A stretch of DNA of 64,000 nt from a virus (IMGVR_UViG_3300021376_000028:21678-85677), one strand, 5' to 3'; numbered from the stretch's first letter, positions 9,544 to 10,733 are shown. Translations and numbers: made by a program. The notes: a model not told the origin generated them from the sequence alone.

Positions 9544-9612
9544 TCACCCGTTCAGGTATAATAAAAGTAAACCTATCGCAGATAATACAGTTATCAAGAA
9601 TAATTCTCTCAT
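9544..9612 (-). CDS. 22-aa hydrophobic peptide
   Basis: MRELFLITVLSAIGLLLLYLNG; GAGGT RBS. Confidence 0.4.
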   Translation of the reverse strand: MRELFLITVLSAIGLLLLYLNG

Positions 9613-9614
9613 TT

Positions 9615-9698
9615 TCACTCACCTCTTTGGGCAAGCAAGTGAGAGGCGATAATCGTTATTATTGTAATTGCTCCATAACCCATTATAAATTTGATCAT
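9615..9698 (-). CDS. 27-aa hydrophobic peptide
   Basis: MIKFIMGYGAITIITIIASHLLAQRGE; GAGGT RBS. Confidence 0.4.
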   Translation of the reverse strand: MIKFIMGYGAITIITIIASHLLAQRGE

Positions 9699-9760
9699 TA
9701 TGATTAACCTCACGCCCGTTGATTTATTTTTATTCTTAGCGCATTTTGAATACGCAATAG

Positions 9761-9832
9761 TAGGCCTATAGGGAATCGAACCCTACTCCACAGATTAAAA
9801 GTCTGTTGCTTCACCATCAAAGCTTTAGGCCT
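9761..9832 (-). tRNA. tRNA-Lys(UUU)
   Basis: AGGCCTA/TAGGCCT acceptor; ACAGA-CTTTTAA-TCTGT; TAGGG-TTCGATT-CCCTA. Confidence 0.92.
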
Positions 9833-9854
9833 TTAGACACGCATTCCCCTACAA

Positions 9855-10127
9855 AAAGATCTAACTGGACAATATATACTACTTGTAAGAACCGTCGTAT
9901 ATATTGTCGGATTAATATAATTTCTTATATTACGGGTTCACAGTCATCTACCGTATAAGCCAAAATCTTATACACAAGTCAAAGCTACAGGCTATTAGCT
10001 AGTTGTGTATTGCAGTTAGTTTTTACAAATAGTGTTTCTATGGACTGAAAGCAGTCCGTTCTGGGATCTCCCCAGACACTCATGCTATTTGTGAGATAAC
10101 TAACAACTTAGACTTTCCCCTAACTAC
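9855..10127 (-). ncRNA. Highly structured candidate ncRNA with RNase P-like motifs
   Basis: At least eight stems in a gap with no long ORF; GGGGAAAGUCUAAG pairs with UUUGGCUU leaving a bulged U. Confidence 0.6.
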
Positions 10128-10321
10128 TCTTCTCGCCAGATTGGATTTTGCAAGATAATAGGTTTATTTTGAACAGGTACAGGTTCAGAATTATTGGAAA
10201 ATAAACAAGGTTCAGACTCCATCATTAGTTTAATTAAAAGAGCTGGTTGAATATTTGTACCTTTAAGTTCTTCAGCCAGTTCTTTCTCATAAGCCTCTAT
10301 ATCGTGAGTGTCTCTATTCAT
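10124..10321 (-). CDS. Hypothetical protein
   Basis: ORF with GAGGA RBS. Confidence 0.6.
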   Translation of the reverse strand: MNRDTHDIEAYEKELAEELKGTNIQPALLIKLMMESEPCLFSNNSEPVPVQNKPIILQNPIWREE

Positions 10322-10355
10322 TTAGTGTTCCTCATAATTGTGAAAATTTGCATAA

Positions 10356-10733
10356 CTAATCATGAATAATTTTCCATCTGTCAACGCCTGGAATGAGACC
10401 TAATTTAGATCCATCATCCCAGGTGACAAATACTGTACCAGTATCATCTATATAATCTATTGTACCAAGATCACCATACTGAAGTTTGGTATATTCATCA
10501 TTGGTGCTAATAAGTTGAATTCTTTTACTAAGACAATGAAAAGATTGTTTTTCAATTTCAAATGGGTCCATTGTTACTCTTGCATCATTAAGAATCATTT
10601 GATCAGTTAATTCAGAGTATTTAAGAATCTGCAGACCACCATAGTTCTCATCCATGAATTGCTTGCAATTTTCAAGCGATCCAGAATAAAGAACAAACTG
10701 ATCTCCTATGTCAACTACGTAATAAATGCTCAT
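10356..10733 (-). CDS. DUF4314-domain protein
   Basis: GDLGTIDYIDDTGTVFVTWDDGSKLGLIPGVD. Confidence 0.8.
   Translation of the reverse strand: MSIYYVVDIGDQFVLYSGSLENCKQFMDENYGGLQILKYSELTDQMILNDARVTMDPFEIEKQSFHCLSKRIQLISTNDEYTKLQYGDLGTIDYIDDTGTVFVTWDDGSKLGLIPGVDRWKIIHD

Follow-up and report, generated by a model that had tools for sequence, protein, structure and literature searches.

What lies in a 289-nt gap that directly precedes a tRNA-Lys gene in a phage from lake water? The window, by which we mean the whole 64,000-nt stretch analysed here, is part of an 85.7-kb IMG/VR phage record (IMGVR_UViG_3300021376_000028:21678-85677), 82% complete, and the gap occupies its positions 10121–9833 on the minus strand, where there is no open reading frame (ORF) of more than 32 amino acids (aa). 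A sequence-only reading had proposed that this gap encodes a minimal or rearranged RNase P-like RNA, or an undescribed class of tRNA-associated RNA. We have found that it is a discrete, recombining non-coding cassette, the 5' leader of the phage tRNA-Lys gene, and its core (10092–10025, minus strand) belongs to a large and apparently undescribed family of phage-borne RNAs of ~70–115 nt. The overall account, in which this is a tRNA-Lys leader cassette and not RNase P, the core is a member of a new phage three-way-junction family and the motif acts as a free RNA, is one that we hold to be evenly balanced between right and wrong.

The three-way junction and its relatives

The family has this consensus architecture: P1 / CAUGGUG / 6-bp P2 with a GAGAN pentaloop / AC / variable P3 / NUGAAACA / P1'. 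P1 is a helix of 8–10 bp and free sequence, the last pair of which abuts the junction and covaries between G:C, C:G, A:U and U:A. P2 is also free in sequence, and the final base of its GAGAN loop is mostly U. The P3 arm is variable and in some members branched, and is followed by the joining strand J3/1, N-UGAAACA. The corresponding parts of the window RNA, all on the minus strand, are as follows.

10015–10104, minus: extended three-way-junction domain, with an outer helix P0, GUUAGU (10104–10099)/ACUAAC (10020–10015), and an internal loop UAUCUC/AAAA
10085–10092, minus: P1 5' strand, ACAAAUAG, pairing with 10032–10025; family-wide, the P1 columns have all four Watson–Crick pair types
10077–10084, minus: J1/2, CAUGAGUG; the family consensus is CAUGGUG and the window has one additional A
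10060–10076, minus: P2 hairpin, UCUGGG-GAGAU-CCCAGA, 6 bp with the GAGAN pentaloop
10058–10059, minus: J2/3, AC, constant in all members seen in the alignments; these include members found with the stem-free P2 pattern, but that pattern itself fixed AC
10042–10057, minus: P3 hairpin, GGACUG-CUUU-CAGUCC, the variable arm, whose foot base pairs covary across the family
10033–10041, minus: J3/1, AUAGAAACA; the family consensus is N-UGAAACA and the window has A for U
10025–10032, minus: P1 3' strand, CUAUUUGU, pairing with 10092–10085
9868–10009, minus: four lineage-specific hairpins, at 10009–9971, 9972–9954 (UAUAAG-AUUUUGG-CUUAUA), 9932–9911 and 9908–9868 (12-bp AU-rich stem)

The inner three-way junction had been noticed in the sequence-only reading, and it is this part that has proved sound. 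The extended junction domain folds with a minimum free energy (MFE) of −29.4 kcal/mol (z = −3.37), a value matched by 0 of 200 shuffled sequences, and the junction is conserved with covariation in many unrelated phages. The fold of the first 96 nt of the gap is thus much better than that of shuffled sequence (z = −3.4), and that of the whole gap moderately better (z = −2.4). P0 is seen in the window lineage only, and covariation is no test of it because its two strands do not vary. The four further hairpins are likewise found only in the window lineage, where they appear in both the MFE and the centroid folds, together with an inverted repeat.

The relationship to other phages is evident from exact matches. 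The 18-mer of the P2 hairpin, CTGGGGAGATCCCAGAAC, occurs in nine viral contigs, of which two (L022 and L027) have the whole 289-nt element; the others are unrelated phages that share only ~75 nt, and in their copies the outer helix and one arm are wholly different in sequence with the pairing retained. An exact 19-mer from the core gave 31 further loci in metagenome contigs (lake, TARA ocean, sediment and soil), and among 185,579 species genomes it was found in three contigs of metagenome-assembled genomes only. A covariance model (R1), built from five members found via the window's 18-mer (L020, L024, L030, L039 and L046) with the window itself excluded, recovered the window over the full model length (1–86) with 61.8 bits and E = 1.1e-15. 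A pattern that leaves the P2 stem free (CATGGTG-N6-GAGA-N7-AC-N8-38-GAAACA) gave at least 120 matches in viral contigs, against roughly 14 expected by chance on our estimate; among the matches listed for it, 79 were confirmed by the model, and 68 of these were new and unique. Altogether we found the motif on over 150 contigs, viral and metagenomic, of lake, marine and soil origin, and the GC content of the motif region in members hit by the model ranges from 40% to 75%.

Across 72 distinct sequences, 92.6% of the alignment cells in the helices are paired, versus 52.3% in shuffled sequence. The covariation score is 0.95 versus 0.22 for shuffled sequence (0 of 500 as high), and falls to 0.10–0.15 when the partners are slid by 1–3 columns. 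All three helices covary: in P2 99.5% of cells are paired with double changes at six of six pairs, and in P1 double changes are found at ten of ten pairs. Fitting these alignments to the model biases them in its favour; the compensations in P1 and P2 are nonetheless evident in the raw sequences. G-U and U-G pairs are frequent, as would fit an RNA read from the motif strand. An early pairing of GUG in J1/2 with CAC in J3/1 was dropped because, in the larger set, the base that precedes CAUGGUG proves to covary with the one that follows GAAACA. A small peptide starting at the AUG of CAUGGUG or at the NUG of NUGAAACA was also considered and rejected: the triplet preceding AAACA is ATG in 41 cases, GTG in 20, TTG in 17, TAG in 4 and others in 6, but the ORF lengths are random and the window copy is frame-shifted with respect to the others.

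At gathering or permissive thresholds, none of 28 loci that carry the motif is matched by an Rfam family, and one member (L024) compared by blastn with 50,697 GenBank phage records gave no match to the conserved core. A full-text search of the literature for the conserved strings returned no paper, and word searches were likewise without a match.

Judged by its sequence, the window copy is a slightly deviant member of the family. The additional A in J1/2 (CAUGAGUG) is shared with the L022 lineage, and the U-to-A change in J3/1, giving AGAAACA, also occurs in L166 and L200.

Several variants of the motif were seen alongside its common form. In a marine subclass (L025, L033, L036, L050, L056; TARA and other marine contigs) GUAGAGU replaces CAUGGUG and UGAUCA replaces GAAACA; P1 is longer, P3 is branched, a terminator-like hairpin often lies downstream and the motif is convergent to its neighbours, an arrangement that suggests a transcription unit of its own. 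Some contigs have two copies, in tandem and ~190–210 nt apart in L032 (65–370), L044 and L169 (406–702), and on opposite strands 1.8 kb apart in L175.

The cassette and its resemblance to RNase P RNA

The limits of the cassette are set by its neighbours and, as described below, by the points at which related contigs change.

9833–10121, minus: non-coding cassette of 289 nt, bounded by the stop of the 65-aa ORF and the tRNA-Lys 5' end
9760–9832, minus: tRNA-Lys(UUU), directly 3' of the cassette, called by ARAGORN and matching the Rfam tRNA model with 59.1 bits
10124–10321, minus: upstream 65-aa ORF, with its stop at 10124 (ORF call; context)
9833–9853, minus: junction 21-mer UGUAGGGGAAUGCGUGUCUAA, which closes the cassette at its 3' end and recurs in L014, L017 and L018, there 3' of a tRNA-like element

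The 65-aa ORF is 97% identical in relatives and its downstream neighbour varies, being the cassette with tRNA-Lys in the window and tRNA-Met in L003 (6239–6538), where the ORF is followed by 27 nt and then the tRNA, and the cassette is absent. Relatives of two flanking ORFs, eight for the 65-aa ORF and four for one of 125 aa, all lack the cassette. The motif is also absent from related genomes that share the flanking genes, including one complete genome of 209.7 kb, and the window phage has a single copy. No match to the window element was found by blastn against GenBank phages, and an exact 24-mer from the end that resembles the conserved region CR-I of RNase P RNA gave 0 matches. A full-length homolog of 93% identity is present in the lineage of L022, L027, L040, L042 and L051. 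Both alleles, the window type and the L022 type, occur within the same lake runs (contigs from four runs). They differ by a compensatory replacement of P3, which is GCUG-UCCUU-CAGC in the L022 type, and by seven substitutions in the 3' hairpins, among them a compensatory A-U to G-C change in the hairpin at 9932–9911 and a C-to-U change that gives G-U in that at 9908–9868. The lake-run contigs change flanks precisely at 10121 and 9833; the upstream partner of the cassette is either the 65-aa ORF or a tRNA-like island, and the downstream partner either tRNA-Lys or a hairpin. One contig, L047, is a recombinant with an L022-type 5' half, a window-type 3' half and tRNA-Lys.

The tRNA region is a hot spot of recombination, its modules sharply bounded, and several of its parts resemble tRNAs. 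In the related phages L014 (1425–1560), L017 (11480–11620) and L018, a conserved non-coding element of ~250 nt ends in a tRNA-like minihelix for which ARAGORN makes no call. It has an acceptor-like stem GGGGAUG/CAUCUCC, with G-U as the third pair, and a T arm CUGGG-UUCGAUU-CCCAG followed by ACC. Its T-stem sequence is that of the window P2 stem. Beyond it come the 21-mer of the window cassette, here the 5' half of a hairpin, and the hairpin UGUAGGG...CCCUACA. In the 202-kb lake phage lineage (L022, 5532–5812; L027, 1–206) the cassette lies inside a non-coding island of ~750 nt that also has a T-arm-like AGCGG-UUCGAUU-CUGCU flanked by GCAUC/GAUGC, a mimic of the top half of a tRNA. The tRNA-Lys(UUU) of the window itself has an unusual D-loop, AGCUUUGAUGGUGAAGC, and is strongly different from the tRNA-Lys of the related phage L003. 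Within the cassette, a pseudo-tRNA at 9998–9900 was tried as a candidate for its 16/20 match to the tRNA 5' end (9998–9979, 80%) and its anticodon-like loop, and was rejected. Neither that likeness nor the AUUUUGG loop at 9972–9954, which resembles a Lys anticodon loop, exceeds chance; ARAGORN finds no tRNA in 9833–10121, and at E ≤ 10 the tRNA model reports only the true tRNA-Lys.

Is the cassette, then, related to RNase P RNA? The strings on which that idea was built are all present on the minus strand: GGGGAAAGUCUAAG at 10120–10107; UUUGGCUU at 9964–9957, followed by AU; UAGAUGACUG at 9950–9941; GUUAGUU (10104–10098) with AACUAAC (10021–10015), followed by UGCAA; and CAGUCCAUAGAAAC at 10047–10034. 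Of these we take GGGGAAAGUC to resemble CR-I, UUUGGCUUAU to resemble CR-V and UAGAUGACUGUGAACCCG the 3' region of bacterial RNase P RNA, by comparison with Escherichia coli M1 RNA. These short local resemblances, and the position beside a tRNA, are what speaks for a minimal or rearranged RNase P-like ribozyme of 289 nt. The CR-I likeness does not stand out from its background, since the 8-mer GGAAAGTC occurs three times in the window with 1.67 expected, and 21 of 100 shuffles reach three. The proposed P4-like pairing is absent from the predicted minimum-energy folds. These strands are invariant in the sole full-length homologs, so that their conservation is uninformative, and they are absent from all other lineages that share the core. 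The CR-IV-like block (9950–9941) does lie 3' of the CR-V-like block (9964–9955), against the order in RNase P and as the sequence-only reading had itself cautioned, and both P3 and the specificity domain are missing.

Covariance models agree with this. At gathering thresholds, cmscan with all 4,227 Rfam 15 families reports only the three tRNAs, and at E ≤ 10 on 9600–10400 and 10000–10110 it reports tRNA only, with no RNase P, GOLLD, ROOL or other family. RF00010 and RF00011 (bacterial A/B) and RF02357 (minimal type T) gave 0 hits at E ≤ 10 in the whole 85.7-kb record, with control genomes positive. The P4 core of RNase P is universally conserved, yet here the P4-like strands are confined to one lineage and the junction is shared; the pattern is therefore the opposite. 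We consider the RNase P interpretation to be the weakest of all and extremely improbable, and the idea of a "mini RNase P" to be a false lead.

Genomic setting and possible roles

The other half of the sequence-only proposal, an undescribed class of tRNA-associated RNA, is supported. In addition to its large covarying family without an Rfam match, the motif is enriched beside tRNAs on the same strand. In the first set, 6 of 16 lineages have a same-strand tRNA within 350 nt, versus 3% of background positions (P = 4e-6), and a tRNA lies within 350 nt in 8 of 68 further unique members (seven on the same strand and one on the opposite), versus 1.7% of background. The tRNA starts ~6–13 nt past P1' in L062, L145, L170, L196 and L214. 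In L062 (6150–6450) two tRNAs are followed by 4 nt, the motif, 13 nt and tRNA-Met, and in L170 (1480–2570) the motif stands fourth in a tRNA array of five units. In both of these it replaces a single tRNA unit and is spaced as a tRNA would be. The motif does not define tRNA ends, because its distance from the tRNA is variable.

The motif begins 0–13 nt past the stop codon of the upstream ORF in 38 of 81 cases (about 40% of members), and is equally close to the next start codon in only 4 of 86. Its strand is nearly always that of the genes, the exceptions being the marine L025, L036 and L056, where the neighbours are on the opposite strand. No neighbour gene is shared; the upstream and downstream proteins are almost all singletons between lineages, and the contexts assigned by Pfam and PHROGs are mixed (HNH endonuclease, small terminase, PD-(D/E)XK/DUF2800, DNA polymerase exonuclease, glycosyltransferase). 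In 10 of 88 cases the motif is followed within 110 nt by a terminator-like hairpin, versus 4% of random windows, a weak association; an intrinsic terminator is found downstream in a minority of members, most clearly in L024 and L175.

In one family of genes the motif is found inside the coding sequence. In the terminase large-subunit family (PHROG 38) it forms an in-frame insertion of ~26 codons that other homologs, many of them close, precisely lack, present in 16 of 80 terminase loci (L063–L074, L094, L095, L098 and L119). The site of insertion is an acidic linker (translated GMVSxExxE...ET). The P2 stems of the terminase copies include CUGGG/CCCAG, CCGAG/CUCGG, CAGAG/CUCUG and CCGAC/GUCGG, and more distant terminase homologs have compensatory P2 variants. 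The 78-nt motif is identical in L020 and L021, and L037 and L049 share it over 45 nt, from P1 into the beginning of P3, as far as the compared sequence reaches; the flanks of all four diverge. In L072 (1587–1657), a terminase relative, P1 and P3 are kept and P2 is lost, so that it looks like a decaying copy. At least one further real gene, in L222 (PHROG 16191), has the motif in the same MV...ET reading frame. As far as the sequences allow, the terminase copy points to selection at the RNA level within a coding gene, and with its compensatory changes in frame it would be a clean natural case of selection for RNA structure imposed on a protein-coding sequence.

How might such an RNA act? In the account that we propose, the motif would be transcribed on the gene strand within long phage transcripts and, where it precedes a tRNA, would be liberated by RNase P cutting at the tRNA 5' end. 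The freed motif would persist as a compact stable RNA, both ends shielded by the closed P1. Its invariant junction and GAGAN loop would form the surface recognised by a conserved partner common to very different hosts, candidates being the ribosome, RNA polymerase, a tRNA-handling enzyme or a nuclease. It would act as a cofactor or decoy and not as the catalyst of tRNA 5' maturation, and the four further hairpins of the window would be lineage-specific decoration. Taken alone, the proposal of a free stable RNA co-processed with tRNAs is a tentative one, which we would put somewhat below even chances. The invariance of the junction across such different hosts implies either an intrinsic activity of the RNA or a universally conserved partner. 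That the family is a new class of catalytic or machine-binding RNA, either self-cleaving or docking on a universal host machine, we regard as possible but doubtful; the machine may be RNA polymerase, the ribosome or an enzyme that processes or cleaves tRNA, and many uncultured phages of lakes, oceans and soils may use the RNA for the control or protection of their transcripts and tRNAs.

Several points weigh against the proposed account. No RNA run was found that contains the stretch, the run contigs compared are of DNA and all members come from uncultured phages, so that the transcription, ends and stability of the RNA are things that we infer. About 85% of members have no nearby tRNA. The closeness to stop codons and the copies inside ORFs suit a cis-acting mRNA element no less than they suit a free RNA. 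The flanking genes are non-homologous between lineages, so that nothing indicates a phage-encoded partner. The window copy could be a weakened member, because it is off-consensus at two highly conserved junction positions. Finally, the novelty of the family is based on its absence from Rfam 15 and from the full-text string search, neither of which is exhaustive.

A cis-acting element that works only on the transcript carrying it is an alternative that we judge unlikely. It may take the form of a put-like modifier of the polymerase, of a barrier that stops exoribonucleases or RNase E and so stabilises the adjacent RNA, or of a coupling to upstream translation termination. The preference for the gene strand (with the marine subclass opposite), the position just past stop codons and seldom near the next start, the tolerance and maintenance of the motif within ORFs and the excess of terminator-like hairpins downstream would all be natural for such an element. 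So would the tandem copies (L032/L044 and L169), which recall the two put sites of HK022 (PMC9378689), and an invariant junction suits a universally conserved target such as RNA polymerase. However, membership of the put class is excluded, since put consists of two stem-loops, lacks a closing helix and is known only from sites downstream of early promoters; it would be odd for an mRNA element to lie in tRNA arrays, spaced as tRNAs are, the link to terminators is weak, and closeness to stop codons may be mere packing in compact phage genomes. A new small self-cleaving ribozyme that punctuates polycistronic phage transcripts, tRNA precursors included, seems to us less probable again. It would account for a three-way junction whose ~20 unpaired nucleotides are invariant and whose helices are free in sequence, an anatomy like that of the hammerhead, and for scattered phage-borne contexts that include sites beside tRNAs, as with the theta ribozymes, which are like that of hepatitis delta virus (HDV) (PMC10879173). 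Against it, no Rfam ribozyme family matches; the hammerhead core, CUGANGA ... GAAA ... UH with junctions of 7/3/1, misfits the 7/2/9 found here; the double pseudoknot and catalytic C of theta/HDV ribozymes are absent; and an efficient self-cleaver would be costly if long maintained in frame in the essential terminase gene.

The two remaining possibilities are both highly improbable. Conserved junction nucleotides between free helices do resemble three-way-junction aptamers, but for a riboswitch-like aptamer for a small molecule or ion one would look for a consistent downstream gene family, a visible expression platform or an Rfam riboswitch match, none of which was found, and the motif occurs inside ORFs and tRNA arrays. 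Marginally less credible still is a DNA-level site for recombination or packaging, or a miniature mobile element, in which the RNA fold is incidental. The sharp junctions of the window cassette, the copies in the packaging module (inside TerL and, in L023, 72 nt past the small terminase gene) and the sporadic distribution among close relatives are in its favour. The helices, however, covary with free sequence, where the ends of mobile elements and protein-binding sites retain theirs; the common G-U and U-G pairs become A-C mismatches if the other strand is read; orientation nearly always follows transcription; and the terminase copy has diverged vertically with compensatory changes.

Should the proposed account be true, a widespread class of structured RNA, at more than 150 loci in lake, marine and soil phages, has been overlooked by the curated libraries, likely because the family lives only in uncultured phages.

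Comparison with known RNAs

With RNase P RNA (RF00010, RF00011, RF00373 and RF02357) the cassette has in common that it is a structured RNA beside a tRNA gene with short strings like those of CR-I, CR-V and the 3' region, but its conserved part is a 70-nt three-way junction that has no RNase P counterpart. The hammerhead is also a three-way junction: its helices are free, its junction strands, of which one has 7 nt, are invariant, and it is common in phage and metagenome DNA. Its strands are CUGANGA/GAA/H, whereas those of the motif are CAUGGUG/AC/N-UGAAACA, and no Rfam hammerhead model matches. The theta ribozymes of gut phages are nested double pseudoknots without P4, in which the catalytic C opens J4/2, and they adjoin viral tRNAs (PMC10879173). 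As small phage RNAs beside viral tRNAs, these HDV-like ribozymes resemble the motif, but the latter is a plain three-way junction in which covariation pairs the 5'-most with the 3'-most strand; the base before GAAACA is mostly U, with no invariant C, there is no Rfam HDV match and the motif, when near a tRNA, sits 5' of it.

The HK022 put RNA folds as a V, with two stem-loops and a triplex, and lacks a closing helix (PMC9378689). Together with the phi29 pRNA it is like the motif in being a phage RNA of ~70–120 nt, and the two act by their folded shape on RNA polymerase and the packaging motor, respectively. The pRNA further shares a three-way junction and a closing 5'/3' helix, but is confined to phi29-like phages and needs covarying inter-molecular loops. 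Neither has sequence in common with the motif, and nothing in the comparison indicates that the motif binds either machine.

Parallels in setting are offered by the RNAs that phages carry among or beside their tRNA genes. Phage T4 has two stable RNAs, C and D (species 1 and 2), which are small non-tRNA RNAs of its tRNA cluster, co-transcribed and co-processed with the tRNAs, and their function is still unsolved. They are ~120–140 nt long and reportedly end in tRNA-like acceptor and T-arm structures; by that description, the window motif differs in having no T-loop and no CCA-like end. GOLLD and ROOL are multi-domain RNAs of about 580–800 nt. Like the motif they are phage-borne, often beside tRNA genes, strongly covarying and of unsolved function; unlike it they are large, the motif being 70–115 nt, and neither Rfam model matches. 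A preprint describes GOLLD and ROOL as assembling into RNA-only complexes (bioRxiv 10.1101/2024.12.08.627333). By its presence in tRNA arrays the motif would join GOLLD, ROOL and the T4 stable RNAs, and would offer a small and experimentally tractable case of the non-tRNA RNAs in phage tRNA clusters.

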